Shown here piece by piece: positions 21,966 to 61,389 of a DNA stretch of 64,000 nt. The position numbers were made by a program, and so were the translations under genes. This stretch comes from Syntrophobacterales bacterium (GTDB lineage: Bacteria > Desulfobacterota > Syntrophia > Syntrophales > UBA2192), in contig JAGPKU010000003.1 of assembly GCA_018053845.1 (NCBI GenBank), forward strand, positions 1,091 through 65,090, written 5' to 3'. Numbering within the stretch: position 1 is the stretch's first letter; each line of letters begins with the position of its first letter. The notes beneath the pieces were generated by a model, which saw only the letters and a program-made list of their open reading frames with translations, made no database searches and was not told where the DNA came from.

Positions 21966-22000
21966 CAGTGACCGGTGACCAGTGGCCAGTGACCGGTGAA
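21966..22000 (+). repeat. tandem heptamer array, 5 units (CAGTGAC CGGTGAC CAGTGGC CAGTGAC CGGTGAA)
   Basis: Read directly from the sequence. It starts 4 nt after the hypA stop. No complementary arm nearby. Confidence 0.9.
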
Positions 22001-22081
22001 AAAAAGATGGATTGTTATTGGAAACTTCGGGAAAATCCTTCCCTGGCATTTTGTAAATTGTGATTCGAAGGAAGCGGAACG

Positions 22082-22312
22082 GTGTGTATTGCTTTTCCCG
22101 GTAAGGTCCTGACCATCGACCAGGACAATTTTGCCGTCATCGATATCAGCGGGACGCGGCGCGAGGTCTCCCTCGACATCGTCGACGAGCCCGTCGCGGT
22201 GGGCGACTACGTCATCTGCCACGCCGGCTACGCCATCCAGCGAATCGACGAGGAAGCGGCCCTGGAGAAGCTCTCCTTCCTGAAAGAGCTCATCGACAAT
22301 GAAATATATTGA
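22082..22312 (+). CDS. hypC: hydrogenase assembly chaperone HypC
   Basis: GTG start giving MCIAFPGKV.. (the HypC N-terminal Cys motif). 76 aa. Confidence 0.85.
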   Translation: MCIAFPGKVLTIDQDNFAVIDISGTRREVSLDIVDEPVAVGDYVICHAGYAIQRIDEEAALEKLSFLKELIDNEIY

Positions 22313-23402
22313 CGAATACCGCAGCCCCGATCTCGTCCGGGGCCTGCTCGACGCCGTGGCGATCCTCGCGGTGGGCATCGGCCGCGACGTCTCCCTCATG
22401 GAGATCTGCGGTACCCACACGCATGCCATCGGGCGCTACGGGTTTCGAAGGCTCCTGCCGAAGAACCTTCGCCTCATCTCGGGGCCGGGCTGTCCCGTCT
22501 GCGTGACCTCCATCGGGGACGTGGACAGGGCCCTGTGCCTCGCGGGCCTCCCGGAGGTGATCTTCGCGACCTTCGGCGACATGCTGCGCGTCCCGGGTAC
22601 GGGCGGCGAGAGCCTCACAAGGCTGCGCGCCTCGGGGGCCGACATCCGGGTCATCTCCTCGGCCGCCGATGCGGTCCGCTTCGCCGTGGAGAACCCGGCG
22701 AGGCAGATCGTCCTCATGGGGATCGGCTTCGAAACGACGGCGCCTACCGTGGCGGCGGCCATCCAGAGCGCCAGGCGAAAGGGCGTGGGGAACTTCTCCG
22801 TCTTCTCCGTGCACAAGACGGTCCCGCAGGTCATCCGGGCGCTCATCGGGGACCCGGAGCTGAACATCGACGGCTTCATCTGCCCCGGCCACGTGAGCGT
22901 CATCACCGGGGTCGAGGCCTACCGCACGATCCCGCAGGCGGGCCGGGCGGCCGTCATCACCGGCTTCGAGCCCGCCGACATCGCCGAGGGGATCCTGATG
23001 ATCCTCCGCCAGGTCGCCGACGGGCAGTTCGAGGTGGCCATCCAGTACGCCCGCGGCGTGAAGGAGCATGGGAATACCCGGGCCCGGGAGGTCATGGCGG
23101 AGGTCTTCGAGCCGGGCGATGCCGACTGGAGAGGGCTTGGCGTCATCCCCGGCAGCGGCCTCGGCATCCGGCGCGAATTCGAGGACTTCGACGCCCTCCG
23201 GCGGTTCACACTTCCCGAGATCCGCTCCGTCGAGTTCAAAGGGTGCCGTTGCGGCGAGGTTCTGCGCGGGGTGATATCGCCCGCTGAGTGCGGCCTTTTC
23301 ACAAAGGCCTGCACGCCGGCCAATCCGGTTGGGCCGTGTATGGTGTCGGGGGAAGGGACGTGCGCCGCCTATTACAAATATGAAAGAATAAGTGACCGGT
23401 GA
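22299..23402 (+). CDS. hypD: hydrogenase maturation protein HypD
   Basis: Contains ..EICGTHTHAI.. and ..GPGCPVCVT.. motifs. The stop TGA (23400-23402) lies inside the following heptamer array. Confidence 0.9.
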   Translation: MKYIDEYRSPDLVRGLLDAVAILAVGIGRDVSLMEICGTHTHAIGRYGFRRLLPKNLRLISGPGCPVCVTSIGDVDRALCLAGLPEVIFATFGDMLRVPGTGGESLTRLRASGADIRVISSAADAVRFAVENPARQIVLMGIGFETTAPTVAAAIQSARRKGVGNFSVFSVHKTVPQVIRALIGDPELNIDGFICPGHVSVITGVEAYRTIPQAGRAAVITGFEPADIAEGILMILRQVADGQFEVAIQYARGVKEHGNTRAREVMAEVFEPGDADWRGLGVIPGSGLGIRREFEDFDALRRFTLPEIRSVEFKGCRCGEVLRGVISPAECGLFTKACTPANPVGPCMVSGEGTCAAYYKYERISDR

Positions 23403-23452
23403 CCAGTGACCGGTGACCAGTGACCGGTGACCAGTGACCGGTGACCAGTGAA
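23390..23452 (+). repeat. tandem heptamer array, 9 units alternating CAGTGAC/CGGTGAC (4.5 x 14-mer)
   Basis: Read directly from the sequence. It spans the hypD stop and ends 10 nt before the hypB SD. Same unit and orientation as 21966-22000. Confidence 0.95.
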
Positions 23453-23469
23453 GAGGGGAGGATTCAAGA

Positions 23470-24129
23470 ATGAAAGTCACCGTTGTAAAAAACGTGCTCG
23501 ATGCCAATGAGCGGATCGCCGCGGAGAACCGCAGGCTCTTCGACGAGAAGAAGATCTACGTGATCAACCTCATGAGCTCGCCCGGTGCGGGCAAGACGTC
23601 GCTCGTGGAGAAAACGATCACGGCGCTGAAGGACTGCTACCGAATCGCCGTCATCGAGGGGGACATCCAGGACACCTATGACGCCGACCGCGTGGCGGCC
23701 CTGGGCATTCCCGCCGTGCAGATCAACACGGGCGGGGCCTGCCACATCGACGGCAACATGATCCGCGAGGCCCTGCCGGCCCTCGATCTGGACAGGATCG
23801 ACCTGTTGATCAGCGAAAACGTGGGGAATCTCGTATGCCCCGCCGAATTCAAGATCGGCGAGAACGCCAAGGTGATGATCCTGAGCACGACTGAGGGGGC
23901 CGACAAACCCGCCAAGTATCCCCTGATGTTCCAGGAGTCGGCCGTCATGGTCATCAACAAGATGGACCTCAAGCCCTACGTGGACTTCGACCTCGAGAAG
24001 GCCAGGCGCGACGCGCTGGCCCTGAACCGAAACCTCAAGATCTTCGAGGTCTCTTGCAAGACAGGCCAGGGCCTCGAGGGCTGGGTCCAGTGGCTGGCCG
24101 GCCAGATCGAGGCCTTCCGGAATCGATGA
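23470..24129 (+). CDS. hypB: hydrogenase nickel-incorporation GTPase HypB
   Basis: P-loop SSPGAGKTS and ..ENVGNLVCPA.. motif. 219 aa, no His-rich N-terminal tract. Confidence 0.9.
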   Translation: MKVTVVKNVLDANERIAAENRRLFDEKKIYVINLMSSPGAGKTSLVEKTITALKDCYRIAVIEGDIQDTYDADRVAALGIPAVQINTGGACHIDGNMIREALPALDLDRIDLLISENVGNLVCPAEFKIGENAKVMILSTTEGADKPAKYPLMFQESAVMVINKMDLKPYVDFDLEKARRDALALNRNLKIFEVSCKTGQGLEGWVQWLAGQIEAFRNR

Positions 24130-26408
24130 GCGAATCGATCAGGCGCATCCGATACCTCTTCTCCGGTGTCGTCCAGGGGGTGGGGTTCCGCCCCCACGTC
24201 TATCGCGCTGCGACGAAGCACCGGCTGGGCGGATACGTCTGCAACACGCCCGAGGGCGTCACCCTCGAGGTGGAGGGCCCGGCCGGACGGCTCGCGAAAT
24301 TTCATGCCGAGCTGACGAAGAGCTTTCCCCCCGCATCCGACGTGGAGGGCATGTCGCGCTCCGACGTCGCCGTCCTGGGCGAAACGGAATTTCGCATCGT
24401 CGCAAGCGAGCAGGAGGGCAGGAAAAAGGTCCTCATCTCGCCCGACATCGCCACCTGCTCCGACTGCCTGCGGGAGCTCAGAGACCCCGCGGATCGGCGC
24501 TACCGCTATCCCTTCATCAACTGCACCAACTGCGGTCCGCGCCTCACGATCATCCGCGACGTCCCCTACGACAGGCAAAACACCTCGATGGCGTGCTTCC
24601 CTCTATGTCCCCGGTGCCGCGCCGAATACGAGAACCCCGCAGACCGCCGCTTCCACGCCGAACCAAACGCCTGCCCCGTCTGCGGGCCCAGGCTGTGGAT
24701 GGCCGACGGCGAGGGAAATGAGCTCGCGGCGGACCCGGTGGAGAAGGCCGCGGAGCTGCTTCGGGCGGGAAAGATCCTCGCCATCAAGGGGCTCGGGGGC
24801 TTTCACCTGGCCGTCGACGCGTCGAACGAGGAGGCCGTCAGGCGACTTCGCTCGAGGAAGTACCGCGAGGAAAAGCCGTTGGCCATCATGGTGAGGGACA
24901 TCGACGCGGTCTCGCGGATCGCGAAGATCGGGCGGGCCGAGCGGGAGCTTCTCCTCTCCCCGCAGCGTCCCATCGTTCTGTGCCGGAAGCTCGACGACGG
25001 CCCGATTGCGCCCTCCGTGGCGCCCGGCGTGCCCAACCAGGGTATCATGCTCCCCTACGCGCCGCTTCACCACCTGCTCATGGAGACAGGCTTCACGGCG
25101 CTCGTCATGACGAGCGCAAACCAGGTCGACGAGCCTATCTGCATCGCCAACCGCGAGGCCCTGTCGCGCCTGAAGGGCATCGCCGAGTTCTTCCTCCTCC
25201 ACAACCGCGACATCCTGGTGCGCTGCGACGATTCGGTGGCGGCCGTCATGGGGCAGGCGCCGGTCCTGATGCGCCGCTCGCGCGGCTGGGCGCCGAAGCC
25301 CGTCACGCTGAAGCGATCCTACCCCGACGTGCTCGCTCTCGGCCCGCACCTCAAGGCGACGCTTTGCATCCTCAAGGGAGGCCTTGCCTACCTAAGCCCC
25401 CACATCGGCGACCTCGAAACCCCCGAGGCCCGCGACTTCCACCGCGAGAGCCTGCGGGTGATGGAGCGCATCGCCGAGTGCAGGCCCGATGTCATTGCCT
25501 GCGACCTGCACCCGGCCTACTGGACGACGCGGCTGGCCGGGGAGCTTCCCCACCGGGAGATCATCCGCGTCCAGCACCACCACGCCCACATCGTCAGCGC
25601 CATGGCCGAAAACGGGCTGTCGAAGGAGATGATCGGCCTTGCGATGGACGGCACGGGATACGGGCCCGACGGGACGGCCTGGGGCGGGGAGTTCCTCGTA
25701 TGCGACGAGGCTGACTACCGGCGGGCGGGCCACATCCGGCCCTACCCTCTGCCCGGCGCCGAGAAGGCCGTGAAGGAGCCCTGGCGCGTGGCAGCAAGCC
25801 TCCTGCGGGAGAGCTTCGGCGGGGACTGGCGCGGCGTGGCGGCAAAACTGCCGCTCGGGAAAAAAGAGGGCCAGTTCGCCGTGCTCGAGAACATGATGGC
25901 CCAGGGCTTCAACAGCCCCCTGACCTCGAGCCTTGGCCGCGTCTTCGACGGCGTGGCGGCCATCCTGGGGACCCGGCAGGCGGTGAGCTTCGAGGGGCAG
26001 GCAGCCATGGAGCTGGAGACCATCGCCGCGGGCCGCTCGACGAGGCGCTACCCCTTCGACATTGCCAATGACGGCGGGAAGCTCGTCCTCGACCTCAGGC
26101 CGCTTGTCCGGGCCGTTGTCGAGGAGAGAATCAGGGGGAAGGACCCTGCAGCTGTTGCCGCGGCCTTTCACCGAACCATCATCGAAGCCATCGCGGCCGT
26201 GGCCGCGGCCGTCCGTGTGCAGGCGGGTCTCGACAAGGCCGTCCTGAGCGGCGGCTGCTTCCAGAACCGCGTGCTCCTGGAAGGGACGGTGCAGGCCCTC
26301 GGGAAGGACGGCTTCACGGTCTACACGCATCGGCTTCTGCCGACCAACGACGGCTGCATCGCGCTGGGGCAGGCTATCGTAGCTGCTTCGCAGCTCCAAT
26401 TGAGGTGA
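24126..26408 (+). CDS. hypF: carbamoyltransferase HypF
   Basis: Start MSESIRR overlaps the hypB stop (ATGA). It has an acylphosphatase-like N-terminus (..GVVQGVGFRP..), two CxxC-x18-CxxC zinc fingers and a YrdC/Kae1-like remainder. The stop is at 26406-26408, inside the next array. Confidence 0.92.
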   Translation: MSESIRRIRYLFSGVVQGVGFRPHVYRAATKHRLGGYVCNTPEGVTLEVEGPAGRLAKFHAELTKSFPPASDVEGMSRSDVAVLGETEFRIVASEQEGRKKVLISPDIATCSDCLRELRDPADRRYRYPFINCTNCGPRLTIIRDVPYDRQNTSMACFPLCPRCRAEYENPADRRFHAEPNACPVCGPRLWMADGEGNELAADPVEKAAELLRAGKILAIKGLGGFHLAVDASNEEAVRRLRSRKYREEKPLAIMVRDIDAVSRIAKIGRAERELLLSPQRPIVLCRKLDDGPIAPSVAPGVPNQGIMLPYAPLHHLLMETGFTALVMTSANQVDEPICIANREALSRLKGIAEFFLLHNRDILVRCDDSVAAVMGQAPVLMRRSRGWAPKPVTLKRSYPDVLALGPHLKATLCILKGGLAYLSPHIGDLETPEARDFHRESLRVMERIAECRPDVIACDLHPAYWTTRLAGELPHREIIRVQHHHAHIVSAMAENGLSKEMIGLAMDGTGYGPDGTAWGGEFLVCDEADYRRAGHIRPYPLPGAEKAVKEPWRVAASLLRESFGGDWRGVAAKLPLGKKEGQFAVLENMMAQGFNSPLTSSLGRVFDGVAAILGTRQAVSFEGQAAMELETIAAGRSTRRYPFDIANDGGKLVLDLRPLVRAVVEERIRGKDPAAVAAAFHRTIIEAIAAVAAAVRVQAGLDKAVLSGGCFQNRVLLEGTVQALGKDGFTVYTHRLLPTNDGCIALGQAIVAASQLQLR

Positions 26409-26491
26409 AAGGTGCAAGGTGAAAGGCTAAAGGGAAAGAAAAAACTCCCCTTCCTTCGACCTTTGACCTTTTTCCTTTAACCTTTAACCTC
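26402..26491. repeat. 7-nt-periodic inverted array: (AAGGTGN)5, a 13-nt loop, then (NNNCCTT)6
   Basis: Left arm GAGGTGA AAGGTGC AAGGTGA AAGGCTA AAGGGAA (26402-26436). Right arm CTTCCTT CGACCTT TGACCTT TTTCCTT TAACCTT TAACCTC (26450-26491). Only the AAGG/CCTT cores are complementary. Confidence 0.9.
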
Positions 26492-26548
26492 GATTTCGAT
26501 AGACGTAAGGATGAAGACAGACCTTTAAGTTCACCTTGGAGTCGAACG

Positions 26549-30474: not shown

Positions 30475-31173
30475 ATGCACCTACCCGACGGCTTTCTATC
30501 GACGACGACGTGGGTCTCCGCCTGGTCCGTATCGGCAGGCGGGCTCGGGTACTGCCTGAGGAGGGCAGCCCGTGAGATGCAGGATCGGATGGTGCCGCTC
30601 ATGGGTGTGCTGTCGGCCTTCGTCTTTGCGGCCCAGATGATCAACTTCCCCGTCATGGGGGGGACCTCGGGGCACTTGCTGGGCGGGGTCCTGACCGCCA
30701 TTCTCCTGGGGCCCTGGGCGGGGGCGTCCGTTATCGCCTGCGTGCTTATCTTCCAGTGCCTGGTCTTCCAGGACGGCGGGCTCACGGCTTTGGGGGCCAA
30801 TATCCTGAACATGGCTCTCGTGGGGACCGTCGGCGGCTATTTTCTCTACCGCTTTGTCGCAATACTCCGGGGCGGCCAGAGAAGCATCGTGACCGGCGCC
30901 ACCGCGGCCGCCTGGTTCTCCGTTGTCATTGCCGCTTCCCTTTGCGCCCTGGAGCTTGCCCTGTCGGGCACCTCGCCACTGGCACTCGTGCTGCCGGCCA
31001 TGGCCGCCGTGCACGCCGTCATCGGGATCGGCGAGGCCGTGATAACGGGCCTCATTGTGGCGTTCATCCTCAGGACGAGACCGGATCTGATCTACAAGGG
31101 CGAGAGTCTCGGGTCTCGGGTATCGGGTATCGAGTCGGAAGCGGCGGAGCGGCTCAGAGAGGTGACTCGATGA
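30475..31173 (+). CDS. cbiM: ECF-type Ni/Co transporter substrate-capture component CbiM/NikM
   Basis: N-terminal MHLPDGFL (CbiM/NikM metal-binding N-terminus) and ..FPVMGGTSGHLLGG... The C-terminal ~25 aa are encoded partly by a heptamer array. Confidence 0.88.
   Translation: MHLPDGFLSTTTWVSAWSVSAGGLGYCLRRAAREMQDRMVPLMGVLSAFVFAAQMINFPVMGGTSGHLLGGVLTAILLGPWAGASVIACVLIFQCLVFQDGGLTALGANILNMALVGTVGGYFLYRFVAILRGGQRSIVTGATAAAWFSVVIAASLCALELALSGTSPLALVLPAMAAVHAVIGIGEAVITGLIVAFILRTRPDLIYKGESLGSRVSGIESEAAERLREVTR
31106..31140 (+). repeat. tandem heptamer array inside the 3' end of cbiM (GTCTCGG GTCTCGG GTATCGG GTATCGA GTCGGAA)
   Basis: Read directly from the sequence. It is translated as ..SLGSRVSGIESE.. 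in the cbiM frame. No stop codons on either strand. Confidence 0.8.
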
Positions 31174-39828: not shown

Positions 39829-39911
39829 GAAGTGAGGAGGAGCGGAAGAGCAGAAGAGCGGAAAAAGAAAAATGAAATTTTCCATGCCGCTCTTCCGAGG
39901 TTCCTACCTTC
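39829..39911. repeat. 8-nt-periodic inverted array: (GAAGAGCR-like)5, a loop, then (NNNNCTTC)3
   Basis: Left arm GAAGTGAG GAGGAGCG GAAGAGCA GAAGAGCG GAAAAAGA (39829-39868). Right arm CGCTCTTC CGAGGTTC CTACCTTC (39888-39911). It is the reverse-complement relative of 44022-44121. Confidence 0.9.
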
Positions 39912-41252: not shown

Positions 41253-41867
<615 letters not shown>

Positions 41868-41873
41868 GCGACA

Positions 41874-42933: not shown

Positions 42934-42960
42934 CCGCGGATGCATTCCGCGATCCCGCCG

Positions 42961-43056
42961 AAGGTGAGAAGGTGAGAGGATGAGAAGGTTGGATTTACAG
43001 GCAGCCAAACGCTCGCGCTTCGTTTCTCCAACCTTCTTCCCTTCACACCCTCTCCC
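42961..43056. repeat. 8-nt-periodic inverted array: (AAGGTGAG)x4-like, a 32-nt loop, then (CTTCNNNC)4
   Basis: Left arm AAGGTGAG AAGGTGAG AGGATGAG AAGGTTGG (42961-42992). Right arm TCTCCAAC CTTCTTCC CTTCACAC CCTCTCCC (43025-43056). Confidence 0.9.
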
Positions 43057-43090
43057 CCTCTGCATTGTAGGTGGGGCATAGTCTCACAGC

Positions 43091-44029
43091 ATGAAGACGG
43101 TCCGTGCCAAATATGACCCCGAGGTCCTCGTCGTCGGCTCCGTCACGATCGACCGGATCATCGAGAACCGGTCCATCACGGAGCGGCTGGGGGGTGTCGT
43201 CACCTACGGAGGGCTGACCTTTCAGCGGCTGGGCGTCGCGACGTCCGTCGTGACGAACGTGGCGGACCCTCACCGGCCCCTTCTCGATATCCTTTCCGAC
43301 GAGGGTCTTGCCGTCCACGCGGGGAAAAGCCCCGGGACCACGCGGTTCGTCAACGAGTCCCGGGGGGACTTCCGCGAGCAGCTCATGCCGGAGACGGCGG
43401 GCCCCATCTCGGCAGACCAGGTTCGGCCGCTTCTCGAACAGGTCCGCCACGTCCACGCGGGCCCCCTTCATTCCGATGACATCGATGCGCGGGCCGTGGC
43501 GCTCATGGGGGAGTCGAAGAAACTCGTGAGTCTCGACGTGCAGGGGTATCTGCGCATCAACGAAAACGGCCGGGTCGTCCCGGGTGTGTCGGCGGGGCTC
43601 GAAGGGGCTCTCGGCGCCGCCCACATCATCAAGGCCGACGAGGGGGAACTGGCCCTCATGCTCGATCACTTTCTCGAGAGCCTCCCGGGTTTCCTGCGGC
43701 GGTTCCGGATCGACGAGGCCGTGATCACCCGCGGCTCGCGCGGCGCGAGCGTGTGGACCCGCACCGGGGACGGGGTCCACTTCGGCGCCGAGGCGGTCCG
43801 GCGTCCCGTGAGCACCGTGGGGGCGGGGGATGTCTTCTTTGCCGCCTACCTCGCGGCCCATCTCTACCGGGGGCTCGACATCGACCTTGCCGCCGGGTTT
43901 GCGGCAGGGGTTGCGGCACGGCAGGTCGCCGGAAAGCACATTGCCCCGGCGTTGCTGGACTTGCCGACCGAACAACCGGGTGTGGGCGGGAGAAAAAGGT
44001 CGGCTGCCCCTTCGAGCAAGCGAAGGTAG
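43091..44029 (+). CDS. PfkB-family sugar/nucleoside kinase
   Basis: ..VLVVGSVTIDRI.. N-terminal motif and ..GAGDVFFAAYL.. ATP-site motif. The stop TAG (44027-44029) lies inside the next array. Confidence 0.8.
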   Translation: MKTVRAKYDPEVLVVGSVTIDRIIENRSITERLGGVVTYGGLTFQRLGVATSVVTNVADPHRPLLDILSDEGLAVHAGKSPGTTRFVNESRGDFREQLMPETAGPISADQVRPLLEQVRHVHAGPLHSDDIDARAVALMGESKKLVSLDVQGYLRINENGRVVPGVSAGLEGALGAAHIIKADEGELALMLDHFLESLPGFLRRFRIDEAVITRGSRGASVWTRTGDGVHFGAEAVRRPVSTVGAGDVFFAAYLAAHLYRGLDIDLAAGFAAGVAARQVAGKHIAPALLDLPTEQPGVGGRKRSAAPSSKRR

Positions 44030-44121
44030 GAAGCGAGGAAGAGCGGAAGATCGGCGTAAAAGAGGTACTTGATGATCATTGTTCTTGTCCGTTCTTCTCA
44101 ACTTCTGCTCTTCCGCTCTTC
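44022..44121. repeat. 8-nt-periodic inverted array: (GAAGNNNG)4, a loop, then (NNNNCTTC)4
   Basis: Left arm GAAGGTAG GAAGCGAG GAAGAGCG GAAGATCG (44022-44053). Right arm CGTTCTTC TCAACTTC TGCTCTTC CGCTCTTC (44090-44121). Confidence 0.9.
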
Positions 44122-44194
44122 ATGCACTGAAGTCGCCGGGCTGGCGAAAAGATAAAGAGTTCTGTTAACGGAATTGAAGAAAGGAGGGTACAAG

Positions 44195-44677
44195 ATGAAG
44201 GTGCTCATTCTCTATTTTTCCCGGACGGGCAACACGAAGAAGCTGGCCGAGGAGATCGCCAAGGGCGTTGCGGAGGTCGAGGGCGTGCAGGCCGTGATCC
44301 GATCCACGGCGGACGTCACGAAAGAGGATTTCGTCGCCGCCGACGGGATCATCGCGGGCTCTCCCGTCTACTTCGGGTCCATGGCGGCGCCCCTCAAGGA
44401 TGTCCTTGACAAGTACGTGGGGGTGCGGAAGAAGATGGAGAACAAGGTGGGCGCCGCCTTCGCCACGAGCGCCGACCCGTCGGGCGGCAAGGAGACGACG
44501 ATGATCTCCATCCTCCAGGCCCTGCTGATCTACGGGATGATCGTCGTCGGCGACCCCCTCGACGCGACGGGCCACTACGGGGTGTCCTGCCTCGGGGCCC
44601 CCGACGCGGCGGCGTCGGAGAACGGGCGCAAGCTCGGGAAGAGGGTGGCCTCCTTAGTGAAGAAGGTAAGAGGGTAA
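44195..44677 (+). CDS. flavodoxin-like fold protein (WrbA/NAD(P)H:quinone oxidoreductase-like)
   Basis: Start MKVLILYFSRTGNTKKLAE, followed by ..GSPVYFGSMAAPLK... The stop TAA (44675-44677) lies inside the next array. Confidence 0.8.
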   Translation: MKVLILYFSRTGNTKKLAEEIAKGVAEVEGVQAVIRSTADVTKEDFVAADGIIAGSPVYFGSMAAPLKDVLDKYVGVRKKMENKVGAAFATSADPSGGKETTMISILQALLIYGMIVVGDPLDATGHYGVSCLGAPDAAASENGRKLGKRVASLVKKVRG

Positions 44678-44764
44678 GAAGGCAAGAAGGTTGGACAACC
44701 CGGGAGTCATGGCATGCTGCGGCGTCTCCAACCTTCTCAACCTCCAACCTTCTCACCTTCAGTG
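44657..44764. repeat. 8-nt-periodic inverted array: (GGTAAGAR)4-like, a loop, then (CTTCTCAN/CCTCCAAC)5
   Basis: Left arm GTGAAGAA GGTAAGAG GGTAAGAA GGCAAGAA GGTTGGAC (44657-44696). Right arm TCTCCAAC CTTCTCAA CCTCCAAC CTTCTCAC CTTCAGTG (44725-44764). Confidence 0.9.
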
Positions 44765-44829
44765 TCCATACGCCGGCGGCAGAGTTTACCGGGGGAAGTA
44801 AAATCACATCTGCAGGCGAGAGGGAAGAG

Positions 44830-49152: not shown

Positions 49153-49260
49153 AAGGTAGGAGGGTAAGAGGGTGAGAGGGTAGAAAGGGCTGGAGAGGCC
49201 GGTGGACTGTTTCCGGTCTCCGCTTCTCCAACCTTCTTACCTTCACACCTTCTCAACTTC
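49153..49260. repeat. 8-nt-periodic inverted array between convergent ppsR and rmuC
   Basis: Left arm AAGGTAGG AGGGTAAG AGGGTGAG AGGGTAGA AAGGGCTG (49153-49192). Right arm TCTCCGCT TCTCCAAC CTTCTTAC CTTCACAC CTTCTCAA CTTC (49217-49260). The rmuC stop (49243-49245) lies in the right arm. Confidence 0.9.
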
Positions 49261-50688
49261 TTTTTGGTTCGTCTCCACCCCTGCGATCGTCTCGCGGGCC
49301 GTCACCCGGATCTCGTCCATCGCCTCGGGCAGTTCCCGGCTCGTCGAGACGCCCAGTTCCCGGAAGCGCCGGAAGGAGGGCATGAGCCGCGTCTCGATGG
49401 ACCGGACGGCGTCGTTGTGCGCCTCGACCGCCCGGGTGAGGTTCGCCCCGGCCCTCGCGATGTGGTCGGCGACGACGGAGAAGCGCTCGTAGATCTCCCG
49501 GCCCAGGCGGTTGATCTCCCGGGCGCCCGTCGCCACCTGCTCCTGCTGCCAGCCGTAGGCCACGGCCTTGAGCAGCGCGATGAGCGTCGTGGGGGTGGCG
49601 AGGATGACCTTGCGGAGGCTGCCGTCCTCGATGAGGCCCGGGTCGTTCTCGATGGCGGCGCTGAAAAAGGTTTCGCCGGGCAGGTACATGACGACCAGCT
49701 CCGGCGACTCCTCGAACTGGTCCCAGTAGGCCTTGGAGCCCAGGGCGTTCATGTGGGCGCGCACGGCGGCGACGTACCCTGAGAAGGCCCTCTTGCGCTC
49801 CTCCTCGCCGGAGGCCTGCAGGGCATTGAGGAATGCGTCCACGGGGGCCTTGGCATCGATGACGATCGCGCGGCCGTTGGGCAGGCGGACGACCATGTCG
49901 GGGCGGAGCTTCCCCGATTCGGTCTCCACGGTGACCTGCTCGTAGAAGTCGCACCAGGGGGCCATGCCCGCGAGCTCCGCCGCGCGCCGCAGCGACATCT
50001 GGCCCCAGGAGCCGCTCACCTGGGGCTTCCGAAGGGCCGTGGCGAGGCCGGCGGTCTCCCGCTGCAGGGCCTCCTGCATGGCCCCGAGGGACTGGATCTG
50101 CCGGGAAAGGTTGCCGGCCTGCTCGGCCCGGACCCTCTCCATCTCGCGAAGCTGTTCCTCGTAGCGCTTCAGGGTCTCCTGCAGCGGCCGGATCGTCCCC
50201 TCGAGCCCCGCCTGGTGCTCGCCCAGCTTGCCCTTCGTCTGCTCCAGGATCCGGCCGAGGTTCTCCTCGGCCAGTTCCAGGAAGCTGCGGTTGCTGCTCT
50301 CGAGGGCGGCCGACGCCTGGGCCCGGAAGGTGTCGGTCATCTCCGTCTTCATCCGCTCGATGATTTCCCGCTGCCGCTCGATGCTGCGGGCGGACTCCTC
50401 CAGCCGCGCCTGGGCCTCCGCGGCCTGGACGCGCTCGTCGCCGAGGGCCTTGCGCAGCCCCGCGATCTCGCCTTCCGACTGGTCGAGCTGACGCGTCAGC
50501 TGCTGCATCTGCCCTTCGGCGTAGCGGGCGCGGCCCTCCGCCTCCGAGAGCCGGGCGCCGAGGGCCTGCCGGAGCTCGTCGGTCTGCCGCTGGAATTCCT
50601 TCCGGTCGACGAGCCGCGCCAAAATCCACAGGAGCACGCCGCCCGCCGCAAACCCCGCCAAAAAGACGATGACGATCTCGATGGACAT
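49243..50688 (-). CDS. rmuC: DNA recombination protein RmuC
   Basis: N-terminal TM segment, a long coiled-coil, and a C-terminal RmuC nuclease-like domain (..VVRLPNGRAIVIDAKAP..). Confidence 0.88.
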   Translation of the reverse strand: MSIEIVIVFLAGFAAGGVLLWILARLVDRKEFQRQTDELRQALGARLSEAEGRARYAEGQMQQLTRQLDQSEGEIAGLRKALGDERVQAAEAQARLEESARSIERQREIIERMKTEMTDTFRAQASAALESSNRSFLELAEENLGRILEQTKGKLGEHQAGLEGTIRPLQETLKRYEEQLREMERVRAEQAGNLSRQIQSLGAMQEALQRETAGLATALRKPQVSGSWGQMSLRRAAELAGMAPWCDFYEQVTVETESGKLRPDMVVRLPNGRAIVIDAKAPVDAFLNALQASGEEERKRAFSGYVAAVRAHMNALGSKAYWDQFEESPELVVMYLPGETFFSAAIENDPGLIEDGSLRKVILATPTTLIALLKAVAYGWQQEQVATGAREINRLGREIYERFSVVADHIARAGANLTRAVEAHNDAVRSIETRLMPSFRRFRELGVSTSRELPEAMDEIRVTARETIAGVETNQKEVEKV

Positions 50689-50704: not shown

Positions 50705-50790
50705 GGCTTAAGGCAAAGGGCTTACGGCGTATGGCAAAGGAATAAGAATTTCTTTCTGTGCCCTAAGCCTTACGCCCTGTGCCGTTTGCC
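50705..50790. repeat. 7-nt-periodic inverted array: (GGCNNNN)5, a 15-nt loop, then (NNNNGCC)5
   Basis: Left arm GGCTTAA GGCAAAG GGCTTAC GGCGTAT GGCAAAG (50705-50739). Right arm CTGTGCC CTAAGCC TTACGCC CTGTGCC GTTTGCC (50756-50790). It lies 17 nt upstream of the rmuC start codon. Confidence 0.9.
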
Positions 50791-51129
50791 ATTCTTCATA
50801 CCATCATCCCCTCGACATGGCAAAGGATTCGACGGGCGGGGCCGCGCCCGGGGCGGGCACCGGCCTGTCCGGAAAACCGGCAGGCGGCGTGGGCGGCGCG
50901 GGCACCCGGGGTCCGCCGTCGCGACCCCGTCCTGCAGCGTCGGGATCCCCCGGGGGCGGCCCTGCGGGCGGCTGTCCCCCGAAACGCCCTGCTGGCGATG
51001 ATTTTATCGGAGAGGGCCGGAAAATGTCTCCCGGGGCCGGTTTGGGGCCGCCTGGGGCCCGAAAGGGGCATGTATCTTGCATTTCGACGGGACGACGTTT
51101 TGAAGACGCATCGGGTAAAAAACGGGCAC

Positions 51130-51324: not shown

Positions 51325-51594
51325 ATGAACAAGGGACAACTCGTTGAAGTGGTAGCCAAGGCACTTGGCTCCAAGAGCGCGGCGGAGAAGGCCATCAATG
51401 CAACCCTGAAGGCGGTCTCGGATGCCCTGAAGAAGGGCGACAAGGTCACGCTGGTCGGCTTCGGGACCTTCTCGGTCTCCAAGCGCGCCGCCCGCACCGG
51501 CCGCAACCCCCAGACGGGCAAGGAAATCAAGATCAAGGCGAAGAAGGTACCCAAGTTCACCGCCGGCAAGGCTCTCAAGGACATCATCCGGTAG
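51325..51594 (+). CDS. hup: nucleoid protein HU
   Basis: MNKGQLVE.. and ..[26 protein letters not shown].. are the HU/IHF signature arm. SD GGAGGA. Confidence 0.92.
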
Positions 51595-51610
51595 AAACAG
51601 TTGCCCTGAC

Positions 51611-51642
51611 CCCCGGTGCTCCCCACACCGGGGGTTTTTTTA
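51611..51642 (+). terminator. rho-independent terminator of hup
   Basis: CCCCCGGTG (51611-51619), a 7-nt loop, CACCGGGGG (51627-51635), then T7. Confidence 0.85.
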
Positions 51643-51711
51643 TGCCTGCCGCCCCCCGCCCCTCCACTTTTCGTTTGAGATTGCCTCGCTGAATCGAGTA
51701 AAACGTGGATC

Positions 51712-54933: not shown

Positions 54934-54934
54934 G

Positions 54935-58531: not shown

Positions 58532-60378
58532 GCACCGGGGTCGTCGACAGCCTCCATGCGGCAGGCTCGGTCTCCACCCTCGACCGGGGCTTCGCGCGCC
58601 TCATGGCGCGCCTCGCGGGATCGCGGGACGGGGCGCTCGAACTTGCCGCCGCCCTCGTGAGCCGCTCCTCGACCGAGGGGAACATCTGCCTCGACCTGGC
58701 CGGCCTTGCAGGCGAGGCGGCTGCGGCGGGCCCGGGCGCGCCCCGCTGCCCCGCGCTGGAGCCCTGGGTTTCCGCGCTGCGCCGCAGCGCCGTCGTCGGC
58801 GCCCCCGGGGATTGGCGCCCGCTCATCCTGCACGGGACCCGCCTGTACCTGTACCGGCACTGGGAAGCGGAGCAGGGCCTCGTCCGATTCCTGCAGGAGC
58901 GCTCGCAGGGCCCGGGCCCCGCGGTCGACGTCGGGCTGCTCCGGGAGGGGATCCTGCGGCTCTTCCCGAACCGGGACGGGGAGACCGACTGGCAGCGGGT
59001 CGCCGCGGCCGTTGCCGTGCTGCAGCCCTTCTGCGTGATCACGGGAGGCCCCGGGACGGGGAAGACGACGACGGCGGCGGCCGTGCTGGCCCTGCTGCTG
59101 GAACAGGCGAAGGCCCGGCCGCCGCGGATCGCCCTTGCCGCGCCGACGGGGAAGGCGGCCGCACGGCTGCAGGAGGCCATCCGCGACTCGGCCGCCCGGC
59201 TCCGCTGCGGGCAGGACATCCGGGAGCGCCTCGCCGGCATGGAGGCCACCACCCTGCACCGCCTGCTCGGGGGCCGCCCCGGTGTTTTCCCGTTCGGCCG
59301 GGACGAGGAAGAGCCGCTGCCCTTCGACACGGTTGTCGTGGACGAGGCCTCGATGGTCCCCCTGCACCTCCTCCATGCCCTGGCGAGGGCCCTGTCCGGG
59401 GACGCGCGGCTGATCCTCCTGGGCGACCGGGACCAGCTGGCCTCGGTGGAGGCCGGCGCCGTTCTCGGGGATCTCTGCGGCCCGGGTCACAGGCGCCTGT
59501 TTTCCGGTGCCGCCGCGGGGAGGATCGCCGAGGCGAGCGGCGAGACGGTGCCGCTGCTGCCTGCGGGTCAGAAGCCCTCTCCCGTCGGCGACGGCATCGT
59601 CGAGCTCGAACGCAACTGGCGCTTCGGGGCCGAAAGCGGGATCGGCAGGCTCGCACGGGCCATCCGGGAAGGCCGCCCGGACGAGGCCCTTTCGACGTTG
59701 CGGGCCGGCGGTCTCGGCGATCTGGGCTACCGGGCCGTCCCCGGGCCCCGCGACCTCGCGGGGGCCCTCGTCGAGCCGGTGCTGGCCGGGTACGGCGATT
59801 ACCTCGGCGGGAGCGGGCCGGGGGAGATCTTCGAGCGCTTCAACCGCTTCCGGATCCTCTGCGCCCTCCGCGAGGGACCGTTCTCCGTGGAGGCCCTCAA
59901 CGAGGCCGTGACGGCGATCCTGGCCCGCGCGGGACGCCTGCGGCCGGGGCGCCCCTGGTACGAGGGACGTCCGGTCATGGTGACCCGCAACGACTACGGC
60001 CTGCGGCTCTTCAACGGCGATGTGGGCATCGCGCTGGCCGACCCCGATGCGGACGGGGCCATTCGCGTCTTCTTCCCGTCCCCCGATGGGTCCATGCGGA
60101 AGTTCGAGCCCTACCGCCTGCCCGAGCACGAGACGGTCTTCGCGATGACCGTGCACAAGAGCCAGGGGACGGAGTTCGATCACGTGCTGCTCATTCTTCC
60201 CGAGGGCGACGCGCGGGTGCTGACGCGGGAGCTGCTGTACACGGGTCTGACCCGGGCCCGCAAGCGCGTCGATTGCTGGGCGGGCGCGGAGGCTCTCCGG
60301 GCGGCGTTGTCGCGCAGGATTGAGCGGGTCAGCGGACTCCGGGATGCCCTCTGGCCGCAGGTAACAGGTAACAGGTAA
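58528..60378 (+). CDS. recD: exodeoxyribonuclease V alpha subunit
   Basis: ATGA overlap with recB. It has the SF1 helicase P-loop GGPGTGKTT and ..TVHKSQGTEF... The last 7 codons and the stop are encoded by the (CAGGTAA)4 array. Confidence 0.92.
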   Translation: MSTGVVDSLHAAGSVSTLDRGFARLMARLAGSRDGALELAAALVSRSSTEGNICLDLAGLAGEAAAAGPGAPRCPALEPWVSALRRSAVVGAPGDWRPLILHGTRLYLYRHWEAEQGLVRFLQERSQGPGPAVDVGLLREGILRLFPNRDGETDWQRVAAAVAVLQPFCVITGGPGTGKTTTAAAVLALLLEQAKARPPRIALAAPTGKAAARLQEAIRDSAARLRCGQDIRERLAGMEATTLHRLLGGRPGVFPFGRDEEEPLPFDTVVVDEASMVPLHLLHALARALSGDARLILLGDRDQLASVEAGAVLGDLCGPGHRRLFSGAAAGRIAEASGETVPLLPAGQKPSPVGDGIVELERNWRFGAESGIGRLARAIREGRPDEALSTLRAGGLGDLGYRAVPGPRDLAGALVEPVLAGYGDYLGGSGPGEIFERFNRFRILCALREGPFSVEALNEAVTAILARAGRLRPGRPWYEGRPVMVTRNDYGLRLFNGDVGIALADPDADGAIRVFFPSPDGSMRKFEPYRLPEHETVFAMTVHKSQGTEFDHVLLILPEGDARVLTRELLYTGLTRARKRVDCWAGAEALRAALSRRIERVSGLRDALWPQVTGNR

Positions 60379-60448
60379 CAGGTAACAGGACTCCCCTGCC
60401 GCCTGTCTTTGCCTGTCACCTGCGACCTGCCACCTGTCACCGTTTTTT
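60358..60448 (+). repeat. 7-nt-periodic inverted array with T6 tail (terminator-like) at the end of recCBD
   Basis: (CAGGTAA)4 CAGG (60358-60389), a short loop, then TCCCCTG CCGCCTG TCTTTGCCTG TCACCTG CGACCTG CCACCTG TCACCG (60392-60442), then TTTTTT (60443-60448). Confidence 0.9.
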
Positions 60449-60586
60449 AGACGGTTGTCCGGCACCCTGTCACATTTTCCGCGATGCCAAAACGGCACGA
60501 ATGATCCTCTCAGGAGGCTTTTCCTCTCTTCTGGCAGGCGTTCCGCCCAAAGCCCTCGAACCCGTCAGCTCGCTGAAACTCGCATG

Positions 60587-60628
60587 ATTCCTGACGCCTG
60601 TCGCCTGATGCCTGGTGCCTGCTTTTTT
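60587..60628 (+). repeat. orphan pyrimidine-type heptamer arm (NNGCCTG-like x5) followed by T6
   Basis: ATTCCTG ACGCCTG TCGCCTG ATGCCTG GTGCCTG (60587-60621), C, then TTTTTT (60623-60628). There is no adjacent CAGGC-type arm. Its complement resembles 61355-61389. Confidence 0.85.
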
Positions 60629-60721
60629 GGCATGAATCGTGCTGATTGACCCTCTGCAGGAAGGTCTTTTGTCGGGATACCGATCCGGGCAGGGACCGGG
60701 GAATCCGAATTCACACGAGAG

Positions 60722-61363
60722 ATGCGCCCGATGGATGTGCAGACGAAAACCAGGCTGGACCGGAAGTGGAAGAAACACGCGGACGAGATGGAGCTGGAGG
60801 TCATCCAGAAGCTCAAGGGGAACTCCGACTATCACGTGCTCGAAGTGGTCCGGGCCTCGCTGAAGCGCTTCGGCGTGGAAAAGGCGGGTCTCCGCAGAGA
60901 CAGCTTCGTCATGCGGATCGAAGCCGCGGCGGGAACGGACGAGGGCCGGCGGTCGGCCGGCGGATGGCTGTGCTTCGAGAGCGAGCCCGACGCCGTGTTC
61001 TACCTCTTCCATGTCTGGCTCCGGCACGTCAAGACCAACTTCAACGCCCTGGACGACGCCATGGCCGACACGGTGGATCTCGTGGAGAAGGCGATGGGGA
61101 TCGCCGTGCGCGAGGGGGGGTTCGGCAACGAGGTCCTCAGGGACATGATCATCCGCGCCATCGGCCGGCTGGCCTCCGTGTCCTTCGCGGCCGGGGTCTG
61201 TCTCGACGGCGGGGAGATCGAATCGGAGCTCCTCGAAGGCTGCTCGAGGGGCGACGGCCGCCACGACGAGCTCGCGAAGCTCGCCGCGACGGGCGCCCTG
61301 GACGTGCAGAACCGGAAGCACCTCAAGATGCTCGAGGCGTGGATGGCGGCAAGACAGGCGTAA
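60722..61363 (+). CDS. hypothetical protein, no motif recognised
   Basis: 213-aa ORF with high third-position G+C like its neighbours. The overlapping frames give only Arg-rich junk. The stop TAA (61361-61363) lies in the following array. Confidence 0.6.
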   Translation: MRPMDVQTKTRLDRKWKKHADEMELEVIQKLKGNSDYHVLEVVRASLKRFGVEKAGLRRDSFVMRIEAAAGTDEGRRSAGGWLCFESEPDAVFYLFHVWLRHVKTNFNALDDAMADTVDLVEKAMGIAVREGGFGNEVLRDMIIRAIGRLASVSFAAGVCLDGGEIESELLEGCSRGDGRHDELAKLAATGALDVQNRKHLKMLEAWMAARQA

Positions 61364-61389
61364 GGCGTCAGGCGCAAGGCATCAGGCGG
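61355..61389 (+). repeat. orphan purine-type heptamer arm (CAGGCGT AAGGCGT CAGGCGC AAGGCAT CAGGCGG)
   Basis: Read directly from the sequence. There is no adjacent complementary arm. A conventional terminator follows. Confidence 0.85.

Follow-up and report, generated by a model that had tools for sequence, protein, structure and literature searches.

Paired inverted arrays of 7- and 8-nt tandem units at gene ends of a Syntrophobacterales bacterium and their relation to described intergenic repeats

Described arrays and palindromes between genes

The closest described systems are the paired arrays of Xanthomonas and Geobacter metallireducens. The GGGAATC (GGGNATC) heptamers of Xanthomonas form 70–75 convergent pairs per genome, on average 28 nt away from the ORF upstream (Rehm et al. 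2015, PMC4692102). They are 89–93% intergenic, prefer 4 units, lie nearer to the upstream stop than to the next ORF and are transcribed; each pair has one array per strand with the G-rich array first, and the arrays vary in length between species but stay in the same gene context (PMC4692102). G. metallireducens, a deltaproteobacterium, has “global regulator binding sites” of classes 1–3, which are paired on opposite strands with 3–5 tandem 7–9-mers each (Aklujkar et al. 2009, PMC2700814). Their units are four octamers GTTGCTYN (weakly conserved in the outer two), TCTCCGTS[Y] x3 or MTYCTGA x5. The intergenic sites form several families in one genome, number tens of copies, are missing from a sister species and were read as IHF/HU sites without test (PMC2700814).

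The REP, BIME and REPIN elements of gamma-proteobacteria are abundant extragenic imperfect palindromes, mostly after stops or between co-transcribed genes, in species-specific families that are vertically kept at their loci and have documented terminator or stabiliser action on mRNA. REPs combine a GT(A/G)G head with a GC-rich palindrome and come with a cognate RAYT transposase (PMC2817692), while E. coli REP325 is both a partial terminator and a stabiliser of the upstream mRNA (bioRxiv 10.64898/2026.03.23.713779). The TAACTGA heptamers of Beggiatoaceae and the cyanobacterial STRR heptamers are intergenic, lineage-restricted and phylogenetically scattered (MacGregor 2015, PMC4679880), and three of their units close all frames because the unit contains stop codons (PMC4679880).

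The arrays analysed here, from one stretch of 64,000 nt (the window) of a Syntrophaceae bacterium, are very probably the arms of several small dispersed palindromic intergenic repeat families that are confined to Syntrophaceae and some other lineages and match the paired arrays of Xanthomonas and G. metallireducens in kind. An earlier note on this DNA knew of no description of such arrays, but their novelty fails given the two published cases of paired inverted arrays near stops (PMC4692102, PMC2700814); these largely anticipate the finding, as it matches a repeat family that had been described before, and the published arrays are also without an assigned function. As in Xanthomonas, array 31106–31140 and its family P7-b have an essentially Xanthomonas-type unit (GGGTATC). 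Whereas Xanthomonas has a single unit family with G-quadruplex (G4) potential, the window has at least eight, most of them unable to form G4, half of them with an 8-nt period, one with a length-fixed centre, and exchanged at orthologous spacers. The unit sequences also differ from those of G. metallireducens, where paired sites are described as lying at variable distances and class 1 sites adjoin ISGme8/9 insertions, while no IS association was seen for the window arrays. In STRR and TAACTGA arrays direct repeats just 5' of start codons are almost the rule (one inverted in 170), whereas inverted pairs after stops predominate in the window.

A typical element begins at or across a stop with 4–5 G/purine-rich heptamers or octamers, followed by a centre of 10–45 nt and 4–5 complementary pyrimidine-rich units. 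This layout resembles REP, BIME and REPIN elements, of which the REPINs are ~90–110-nt doublets in which a less conserved centre separates the inverted arms. Unlike REPs, the arms are tandem 7/8-mers that are purine/pyrimidine asymmetric and AT-richer than the genome, with no GTAG head and no known RAYT.

The arrays of the window and their gene context

All 13 arrays reported earlier were recovered in place by Tandem Repeats Finder (TRF; period 7 or 8, scores 32–122), and an autocorrelation scan of the window (self-match of 75% or more across 4 units) detected nine period-7 and six period-8 arrays. With 30 dinucleotide-preserving shuffles giving 0.2 arrays for each period, both are ~10–40 times commoner than in shuffles; periods 9–13 are at background level and period 6 is elevated by coding sequence. 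The window scan gave no additional period-7/8 arrays, and positions 1–21,900 are without any. The features are listed below (paired elements are unstranded).

21966..22000, + strand: single P7-f array (CAGTGAC/CGGTGAC), 5 units, TRF period 7, score 47; begins 4 nt past the stop of hypA, which has a Pfam match.
23390..23452, + strand: P7-f array of 9 units, 14-nt super-period, self-complementary, TRF score 94/122; hypD stop TGA (23400–23402) within unit 2, hypB start 18 nt past the array.
26399..26495: paired (AAGGTGN)5, ~10-nt centre, (NNACCTT)6; hairpin −36.3/−39.3 kcal/mol, z −5.3/−5.5; first unit contains the hypF stop, hypE downstream.
31106..31140, + strand: single P7-b array (GGGTCTC/GGGTATC, GGGNATC type), 5 units, TRF period 7; within the C-terminal tail of the cbiM ORF, the CbiM domain stopping at residue 205/232.
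39829..39911: paired P8-b (GGAAGNNN x4–5 ... NNNCTTCC x3), hairpin z −3.8/−5.2; spacer between trxB-like and lgt.
42957..43068: paired P8-a, 4 octamers, 33-nt centre, 4 octamers; nhmmer 97.9 bits, hairpin z −5.0/−5.7; ubiA/pfkB spacer, orthologs in L001 and L012.
44022..44121: paired P8-b, weak hairpin; pfkB stop TAG within unit 1, FMN-reductase gene downstream; orthologs in L003 and L005.
44653..44768: paired P8-a, 31-nt centre; nhmmer 95.9 bits, hairpin z −3.9/−5.5; FMN-reductase stop TAA within unit 3, yjeF/nnr downstream; orthologs in L005, L007 and L008 at 0.87–0.90 identity.
49154..49266: paired P8-a; nhmmer 81.7 bits, hairpin −58.6/−42.4 kcal/mol; spacer of the convergent kinase/pyrophosphorylase gene and rmuC, the right arm including the final 18 nt of rmuC, then TTTTT on the + strand; orthologs found.
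50705..50790: paired P7-e (GGCNNNN x5 ... NNNNGCC x5), hairpin z −5.5/−5.0; 17 nt 5' of the rmuC ATG and 3' of a conserved promoter-like block.
60358..60448: paired P7-d, (CAGGTAA)4.6 ... (CCTGNCA)5, then T6; TRF 100% match, score 64; hairpin z −6.0/−7.6; recD stop TAA within unit 3.
60587..60621, − strand: single P7-a array (CCTGNNG x5 on +, G-rich on −), then T6; upstream of ORF 60722–61363; no fold of its own found.
61355..61389, + strand: single P7-a array (CAGGCGN x5); overlaps the stop of ORF 60722–61363, then a classical terminator at 61395–61428.

The preferred unit number per array is 4, as for Xanthomonas and Geobacter arrays.

The proposal that arrays start at or across upstream stop codons agrees with their placement: eight of 13 are at a stop (hypD, hypF, pfkB, FMN reductase, rmuC, recD and ORF213 overlapped, hypA within 4 nt) and three more begin 20–37 nt past one. 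Other placements are the cbiM ORF tail, a site 5' of ORF213 and the position upstream of the rmuC ATG, which had been recognised correctly, as had the T6 tail following 60358–60442. Most arrays occupy co-directional spacers of 100–160 nt that lack a classical terminator, while five spacers with a classical GC-stem/T-run terminator are array-free (including 6399–6551, 21058–21131, 41867–41974 and 51594–51712), and spacer 41867–41974 has its terminator without an array in all 11 species. The exception is terminator spacer 61363–61426, which also carries array 61355–61389; T-runs directly follow two elements. In 12/12 species the element upstream of rmuC begins a few nt past a conserved TTGCCA-N17-TAtgAA and finishes before GGAGG-ATG, and because 50705..50790 is downstream of this promoter-like block it is probably in the rmuC leader.

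Unit families, arm order and folding

The units sort into ~8 families that recur at non-orthologous loci and across 12 syntenic species. The suggestion that unit sequence differs between loci while architecture is kept holds only in part, as the units are not private to their loci and P8-a has a full consensus of ~105 nt (4 octamers, a 32–33-nt centre, 4 complementary octamers).

At all eight paired loci a purine-rich arm precedes a pyrimidine-rich arm, as had been proposed, and in every complementary pair the G/purine-rich arm is the 5' arm; orientation is strictly convergent. Seven of the eight fold on either strand into a single long hairpin with mismatches (−31 to −58 kcal/mol; z −3.6 to −7.6; 0/200 shuffles equally good), and the hairpin at 44019–44124 is weak (z −1.1/−1.7). 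Arm complementarity is 0.55–0.78 at the best register, ~0.05–0.1 less after a shift by one or two units and 0.21–0.35 off phase, which supports the idea of pairing by unit cores in a ladder able to slip by whole units. Three unpaired arrays in the window do not fold, among them 31106..31140, whose family P7-b occurs as a paired element in relatives L004 (15903–16018) and L008 (20149–20252). Array 23390–23452, noted as unpaired, has ACCGGT every 14 nt and folds alone (−31.8 kcal/mol, z −4.4). The first arm closes at least two reading frames in 39/60 cases, compared to 7% of random 40-mers, and the strict polarity needs more than a hairpin alone as its explanation.

A serious, if rather improbable, rival is that the arrays act as double-stranded DNA in which each 7/8-bp unit is one binding subsite of a small protein that binds cooperatively, either of the ribbon-helix-helix (RHH) type or of the HU/IHF type as proposed for Geobacter, two convergent 4-unit arrays making a polar bipartite site at gene ends that could serve as an insulator or roadblock or work together with a mobilising enzyme. 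The ParG site consists of a 4-bp core and a 4-bp spacer, and MetJ sites are 8-bp met boxes. Such RHH arrays (omega heptads of pSM19035, ParG tetramer boxes, MetJ met boxes) resemble those of the window in their contiguous 7/8-bp subsites with a short conserved core and occur in direct and convergent arrangements, convergent being preferred over divergent; they are found as one or a few sites by the cognate operon on plasmids or in regulons, whereas the window has a gene-end site every few kb. Reading of a 7-bp register by an RHH protein is documented (PMC9499535). Binding by a protein would fit the 4-unit preference shared with Xanthomonas and Geobacter, the convergent orientation, the unpaired arrays and the non-complementary neighbouring arrays of some relatives (the rmuC leader of L005 and L007; ubiA>pfkB of L006). 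It would also fit the pattern of conservation, since RNAalifold gives 0–1 covarying pairs and the arms are conserved as a core with variable positions, mismatches included. No sense-strand G·U bias was found, and the antisense strand folds better in 16/22 co-directional elements. The P8-a centre, fixed at 32–33 nt (~3 helical turns; 33 and 31 nt at 42957..43068 and 44653..44768), has almost no common sequence and is unstructured (mean z −0.16), and is therefore less suited to be a hairpin loop than to separate two recognition sites; this asymmetric centre is present in both orientations relative to genes. Against protein binding, centre length is unconstrained in the other families, at least eight unit families per genome would require a set of cognate proteins or a single highly tolerant one, a family swap at the same spacer between species would be odd for a sequence-specific regulon, and there is no evident reason for DNA sites to begin exactly at stops. 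The window has no linked candidate binding-protein gene except an HU-like gene (51325–51594), which is conserved everywhere.

A very unlikely alternative is a G-quadruplex that four G-tracts per arm would form on the G-rich DNA or RNA strand, as proposed for the GGGNATC repeats of Xanthomonas and Nostoc. Although P7-b (GGGTATC/GGGTCTC) is of this type, parts of P8-a (AGGGTAAG x3–4) yield G3N5 runs and 4 units are preferred, most families have units with GG at most (GGAAGAGC, CAGGTAA, GGCTTAA, CAGTGAC, AAGGTGA) and duplex formation with the complementary arm would compete. Judged from sequence alone, G4 formation is implausible for most families.

Conservation and a possible role at the RNA level

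Four independent assemblies of the same species, 99.85–99.92% identical to and 15–32 SNPs apart from the window, have no indels or SNPs in the 7–8 covered arrays (the eighth, 60587–60621, being present only in the three longer assemblies), and the arrays are thus real and not an assembly artefact. The slippage instability that the earlier note implied is not borne out, with no change in unit number among five strains. This contradicts, at strain level, a role as contingency loci in which slippage would switch neighbouring genes by phase variation, which is extremely unlikely despite the short tandem-unit build and the variation of unit number between species; the neighbours are also housekeeping genes, and the arrays come after stops rather than in 5' coding regions or promoters.

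The trxB>lgt and ubiA>pfkB spacers contain an element in every species with both flanking genes (nine each), and the unit families are different; therefore it is the architecture that is kept, not the sequence. Arm identity is 0.85–0.91 as compared to 0.55–0.75 at fourfold sites, which indicates selection or homogenisation.

We regard as rather unlikely the reading that the arrays are selfish or mutational by-products without host function, either non-autonomous MITE- or REPIN-like palindromes or slippage-grown arrays homogenised by gene conversion, which would accumulate only where tolerated and be purine-first because this orientation provides stop codons when a gene end is overrun. Such overrun is seen at the C-termini of rmuC, recD, FMN reductase and the cbiM tail, and polymerase slippage has been named as the cause of heptamer SSR excess (Mrazek, as cited in PMC4679880 and PMC4692102). 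Recurrent families common to loci and species, their replacement at the same spacer, P8-a in both orientations and gaps in some lineages (element at fmnred>yjeF missing or one-armed in L003 and L010; L009 array-poor) point the same way. However, neither target-site duplications nor clean empty sites turned up, the window has no transposase linked to arrays, and the P8-a centres at different loci share nearly no sequence, whereas copies of one master element would. Moreover, the arms are held well above the neutral rate, P8-a centre length is maintained over divergence that saturates fourfold sites, occupancy is conserved over 12 species and the strains show no unit-number variation.

Our best guess for the mechanism, which we hold tentatively, is that these are REP/REPIN-like elements acting as transcribed hairpins. 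We infer that they would be transcribed along with the genes beside them, whether as 3' UTRs, leaders or spacers between cistrons, and that their arms would pair into a mismatched hairpin of 30–40 bp acting like E. coli REP elements. In favour of this reading are the placement at stops and in the rmuC leader, the strongly predicted hairpins, the conserved occupancy and arms, the stable unit number, the frame closure by the first arm and the precedents of REP325 and the transcribed Xanthomonas arrays; against it stand the near absence of covarying pairs, the small effect of whole-unit shifts on arm complementarity, the missing sense-strand G·U bias, the better antisense folds, the unstructured P8-a centre, the unpaired non-folding and the non-complementary arrays, and the strict polarity. 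The tandem-unit build probably arose from slipped-strand duplication, and the helix could re-register. With the purine arm first on either strand, reading frames would be closed and C-rich, G-poor (Rho-loading) RNA would never be exposed ahead of its partner. The hairpin would protect the upstream cistron from 3'-to-5' decay and in part attenuate read-through to the next gene, and it may couple to translation termination because its foot would lie within the footprint of the terminating ribosome.

Period-7 and period-8 arrays and their unit families

The 13 tandem arrays listed in the earlier note are real and statistically solid. Tandem Repeats Finder recovered all of them in the window as period 7 or 8, and a sliding autocorrelation scan of the window (at least 75% self-match across four units, with 30 dinucleotide-preserving shuffles as the control) found nine period-7 and six period-8 arrays, far above the 0.2–0.9 expected from the shuffles, with periods 9–13 at background level and an excess of period 6 that is due to coding sequence. 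The arrays are AT-richer (43–63% GC) than the window (65% GC), the exception being 61355–61389 at 69%. Within the window, eight arrays lie on a stop codon or no more than 4 nt from one, three begin 20–37 nt past a stop codon, one is 17 nt upstream of the rmuC start, and one is upstream of an unannotated ORF. At 8 of the 13 loci an array of complementary units lies nearby on the opposite strand in convergent orientation, giving a paired element. It had also been proposed that the units differ between loci while the architecture is kept. The architecture is indeed kept, but the units are not private to a locus, as recurrent families, with either 8-nt (P8) or 7-nt (P7) periods, are common to several loci in the window and 13 related loci.

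Unit families and their positions in the window
P8-a: [AGRRGGTRAG]n-GAAGGTTGGA ... TCCAACCTTC-[YACCYTCT]n, at 42957, 44653 and 49154
P8-b: GGAAGNNN / NNNCTTCC, at 39829 and 44022
P7-a: CAGGCNT, at 60587 and 61355
P7-b: GGGTATC, at 31106
P7-d: CAGGTAA, at 60358
P7-e: GGCTTAR, at 50705
P7-f: CAGTGAC/CGGTGAC, at 21966 and 23390
AAGGTGN type: AAGGTGN, at 26402

The arrays are neither an assembly artefact nor hypervariable at the strain level, as four independent assemblies of the same species (99.85–99.92% identical over 16–21 kb) have no indels over that distance and no SNPs within the 7–8 arrays covered when compared with the window. The artefact that the earlier note raised as a concern is therefore rejected, and arrays also occur in many MAGs. 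The comparison of unit counts between strains that it proposed revealed no polymorphism in the four assemblies, and hypermutable slippage of the type seen in phase-variable (contingency) SSRs is likewise rejected at this level. The four other assemblies agree against the window at 8 differences within 31 nt (45078–45108, yjeF/nnr), and there is a second tight SNP cluster near cutA/sod (41187–41312); either recombination patches or local assembly errors in the window could account for these clusters. A separate observation concerns the Illumina adapter strings AGATCGGAAGAGCG and GCTCTTCCGATCT, which are present as exact matches within genuine arrays of three related loci (L004, L005, and L007), in the spacers between ubiA and pfkB and in P8-b right arms (e.g., L004 12785–12826, L005 13255–13354). 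Routine trimming with default settings would therefore clip real reads and harm metagenome coverage at these sites, and such clipping could break assemblies.

Syntrophaceae loci contain 69 arrays in 215 kb and Thermodesulfovibrionia/Nitrospirota loci contain 16 in 233 kb, all of the latter of period 7, while none were found in 14 loci (228 kb) from other taxa. Some of the Nitrospirota arrays are purine-first pairs, such as (GCNNAGA)n...(TCTTTGC)n at 16299–16423 of locus L041, and the Thermodesulfovibrionia locus L023 has five copies of ATCCTGA (14268–14309), a unit that matches the consensus of Geobacter class 3 sites (MTYCTGA) and is similar to the Beggiatoaceae TAACTGA repeats. RmuC of the window is 78–90% identical to proteins of Syntrophaceae/Syntrophales MAGs, and the gene content of the window includes fdh, NiFe-hydrogenase, hyp, cbi, recBCD, and housekeeping genes. 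In each of two formate dehydrogenase alpha-subunit genes (8039–11185 and 12251–14941, − strand), a single in-frame stop (10471/10520 and 13834/13883) separates an upstream ORF with the Fe4S4 domain from a downstream ORF with the molybdopterin domains, and these stops are probably selenocysteine UGA codons. In the region 31106–31173, the GGGTMTC array lies within the cbiM ORF, which overlaps the following ORF at its end by ATGA, and as this unit has no stop the array would be translated as a C-terminal tail.

Hairpins, polarity and the P8-a centre

When both strands were folded, as the earlier note had suggested, seven of the eight paired loci formed a single long mismatched hairpin on either strand (−31 to −58 kcal/mol, z −3.6 to −7.6), and none of 200 shuffles folded as well; at the remaining locus, 44019–44124, the hairpin is weak. 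The long, nominally unpaired array at 23390–23452 is self-complementary and folds alone (z −4.4), and arrays 31106, 60587, and 61355 showed no fold of their own in this test. The complementarity of the arms is 0.55–0.78 in the best register, slightly lower after a whole-unit shift and 0.21–0.35 off phase. The predicted ladder of short helices that can slip by whole units is thus borne out, as such shifts cost little complementarity. Rfam 15 gave zero matches at the gathering score for the whole window, and a known RNA family is rejected. The elements also do not have the identity of intrinsic (Rho-independent) terminators, as the consensus scan calls no array and a T-run directly follows an element only at 60358 and 49153 (+ strand).

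A REP-like mechanism based on RNA hairpins is possible, although we place it somewhat short of probable. RNAalifold identified only 0–1 compensatory pairs in two sets of orthologous elements because the arms, together with their mismatches, are conserved as they stand. Moreover, the antisense strand is the more stable in 16 of 22 elements located between co-directional genes (mean 2.8 kcal/mol), and hence the G·U signature that a sense-RNA helix would leave is absent; strand assignment from G·U asymmetry was rejected, as the sense strand is not preferred. The polarity of the pairs can be rationalized in terms of RNA. The G/purine-rich arm is 5′ in all 30 pairs from the window and its relatives, which by symmetry is true on both strands, and 445 kb of independent metagenome contigs yielded about 22 further purine-first pairs and no pyrimidine-first complementary pair. 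Whichever side an element is read from, the first arm encountered closes two or more reading frames in 39 of 60 cases, compared with 7% of random 40-mers, and the second arm is usually open. If the elements act as RNA, stops would come first and no C-rich RNA would be left exposed. On the sense strand, single arrays that follow a stop are G-rich and those that precede a start are C-rich, a strand rule that also holds in Xanthomonas, and the ORF at 60722–61363 is bracketed in this way. This ORF (213 aa) has no Pfam match, and the C-rich and G-rich arrays on its two sides, both of the CAGGCNN family, are ~730 nt apart (60587–61389).

The P8-a family was examined on a larger scale using 73 contigs obtained by scanning public metagenomes with an exact pattern for its inner stem. 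A consensus of ~105 nt, aGAaGgTgAGAaGGTgAGAgGGTaAGAAGGTTGGA - taagccgg..gcc.....catgc...ccGctTc - TCCAACCTTCTcAcCtTCt.ACCcTCTtACCtTCTg, is common to about 46 distinct high-GC elements, and a profile built from the distinct elements identified 113 elements in the ~1.3 Mb examined. When the right arm of this consensus is reverse-complemented, its units 2 and 3 stand in the opposite order to those of the left arm, so that a hairpin would contain conserved A·C/G·U mismatches and have an alternative register. Of 85 distinct elements, 56 have a centre of 32–33 nt, and minor peaks of the length distribution lie ~8 nt away. The identity of the centre between loci is 0.57 compared to 0.515 for shuffled sequence, its 5′ and 3′ halves pair no better within one element than between elements, and it folds no better than shuffles (mean z −0.16). 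The stable length, near-shuffle identity and lack of a fold therefore show that the P8-a centre is constrained in length, essentially free in sequence outside its conserved ends and unstructured. A fixed length was rejected as a general rule and applies to P8-a only, as P8-b centres are ~24–33 nt with ambiguous anchoring. The asymmetric P8-a centre has the same direction as the gene in 32 cases and the opposite direction in 19 (28 and 12 with a score margin), which is at most a weak bias since orthologs are not independent, and both orientations clearly occur. No flanking direct repeats of the target-site duplication type were found in about 50 P8-a copies and the centres share almost no sequence, and an identity as MITEs is therefore rejected. 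In some species an arm, or the element in its entirety, is missing, with boundaries that are not clean.

These properties weaken the case for an RNA hairpin, as there is no covariation, pairing is almost equal across registers, the bias is toward the antisense strand, some arrays are unpaired or not complementary, and the P8-a centre is long, unstructured and fixed in length. All of them favour instead a protein that recognizes the units in duplex DNA. This reading has difficulty with the large number of families, with their exchange at a single spacer and with their placement at stop codons, and we consider it rather unlikely.

Element exchange at conserved spacers

The gene order trxB-lgt-cutA-sod-ubiA-pfkB-FMNred-yjeF ... 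ispA-kinase-rmuC-hu-recCBD is kept in 12 species, and the identity of fourfold-degenerate sites to the window is only 0.55–0.75. A paired element is present between trxB and lgt in every species that carries both genes, but the unit families differ: P8-b in the window and L007, P8-a in L003, P7-b in L004, L008, and L009, P7-e in L006 and L012, and a GTGTTAT type in L010. Likewise, the spacer between ubiA and pfkB has an element of differing family in every species with both flanking genes. Between FMNred and yjeF, P8-a is found in four species, its left arm alone in two and a different repeat in three. In L001, L006, and L009, this spacer has a different repeat of ~200–300 nt (...GCAAAAACTCGCCCTGCGGGCTCAAACAGTTTGCGCCGCGG...), in either orientation, that replaces or adjoins P8-a and may be a MITE-like element. 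In the rmuC leader, a conserved promoter-like block is immediately followed in all 12 species by a period-7 pair, whose units differ and whose two arrays lack complementarity in some of the species. The block, GAATCCTTTGCCATGTnGnGGGGATGATGGTAwrAGA (50795–50835, − strand), is kept upstream of the leader element in 12 of 12 species and resembles TTGCCA-N17-TAtgAA, but as it is not called by a sigma-70 scan its assignment as a promoter is tentative. Between this leader element and recC is an HU/IHF-family gene (51325–51594, 89 aa, 90–97% identical across species), which is of interest only because HU/IHF were proposed to bind the Geobacter arrays.

Where orthologous elements retain their family they are 0.71–0.90 identical, with the arms (0.85–0.91) better conserved than the centres (0.72). 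A selfish or mutational origin with no host function would account for the families and their turnover, but it explains neither why arms and centre length are kept at a divergence that is saturating nor why the hallmarks of a transposon are absent, and we regard it as rather unlikely. Classical GC-stem/T-run terminators are located in the window at 6399–6551, 21058–21131, 41867–41974, 51594–51712, and 61395–61428, and these spacers are free of arrays except for the one that adjoins 61355 (61363–61426). The spacer between sod and ubiA (41867–41974) has a classical terminator in all 11 species, with a changing stem and never an array. The RNA-hairpin mechanism is favoured because the elements are found in presumably transcribed spacers and leaders that lack terminators, because arrays are missing from most spacers that contain a classical terminator (with the exception of 61363–61426), and because unit families are interchangeable at a fixed position with a polarity that can be rationalized.

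Relation to known repeats and implications

Intergenic heptamer repeats have been known since the STRRs of cyanobacteria and are the most over-represented class of long SSR in many bacteria, and to our knowledge neither function nor origin has been established for any of them. REP elements affect translation near stop codons. The paired architecture, for which the earlier note knew of no description, has been published in two cases. Xanthomonas genomes each have 183–186 heptamer arrays of the GGGAATC type (Rehm et al., 2015; PMC4692102), which are 89–93% intergenic, prefer four units, are transcribed, and have a mean distance of 28 nt to the upstream ORF and of 160 nt to the following one; 70–75 convergent opposite-strand pairs are capable of forming stem-loops, and gene context is kept between species for 83% while lengths change (PMC4692102). 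Geobacter metallireducens has three classes of opposite-strand paired sites, each with 3–5 tandem 7–9-mers (Aklujkar et al., 2009; PMC2700814), which were proposed, but not tested, as IHF/HU sites (PMC2700814). The arrays described here share with both systems at least 3–4 tandem units of 7–9 nt with a conserved core, a convergent complementary array close by with the G-rich array first, and a conserved intergenic context nearer the upstream stop than the downstream start. The GGGNATC unit of Xanthomonas, with its G-quadruplex potential, is found here only in P7-b (31106–31140), the other families having GG or no G-run. Literature searches found no Syntrophaceae-specific description of such arrays.

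The classical definition of REP elements calls for a GC-rich palindrome behind a GT(A/G)G head, together with a RAYT transposase gene flanked by the repeats (PMC2817692), and one E. coli REP acts as a partial terminator and a stabilizer of upstream mRNA (2026 preprint, bioRxiv 10.64898/2026.03.23.713779). As with REP/REPIN sequences, the elements here are multicopy extragenic imperfect palindromes (hairpins, 113 P8-a elements), but the P8-a consensus lacks such a head, the arms have 43–60% GC against 65% for the genome, and no RAYT (Y1 transposase) gene was found among the Pfam-scanned ORFs of the window. They also differ from cyanobacterial STRRs and from the direct TAACTGA heptamers upstream of start codons (MacGregor, 2015; PMC4679880), being Syntrophaceae arrays of other units that are mostly inverted pairs after stops. 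Several further identities were dropped. Shine-Dalgarno or anti-Shine-Dalgarno mimicry fits only the AAGGTGA/ACCTCC-like families and not GGCTTAA, CAGGTAA, CAGTGAC, or GGGTATC; Chi-like sites do not fit units that differ between loci; GTTGGAT resembles the integron attC core GTTRRRY, but the cores occur in inverted order and the genes concerned are housekeeping genes in conserved synteny; and CRISPR-like mini-arrays would match the 32–33-nt centre, but the flanking repeats are inverted, not direct. It seems clear that the arrays are the arms of several dispersed palindromic intergenic repeat families, which are placed like REP/REPIN sequences and are the equivalent in Syntrophaceae of the elements known from Xanthomonas and Geobacter.

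A more specific proposal, which we consider distinctly unlikely, is that the arms are polar four-unit arrays for protein recognition in a 7- or 8-bp register, with P8-a arms exactly 32–33 bp apart. ParG and MetJ have an 8-bp register. The omega protein reads contiguous 7-bp heptads, a structural precedent for a 7-bp DNA register (PMC9499535), and the likeness to RHH-type operator arrays is architectural only (period, core plus spacer, and convergent preference). If true, there would be a clade-wide set of hundreds of protein-bound markers of gene ends, which could be roadblocks to transcription or translation, insulators, or a resident element system similar to REPIN-RAYT, and a given spacer could be taken by any of several interchangeable cognate families. 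The heptamer arrays of Xanthomonas, Geobacter, Nitrospirota and cyanobacteria would then be explained by the same logic.

What is new is the lineage, the multiple families including those of period 8, the exchange of families at conserved spacers, a polarity without exception in the data examined, the stability at the strain level and the length-fixed P8-a centre. With 12 syntenic species in which the same spacers are occupied by exchangeable unit families, these organisms represent a favourable comparative system, and the constraints on polarity, centre length and arms make the function of heptamer arrays experimentally addressable.
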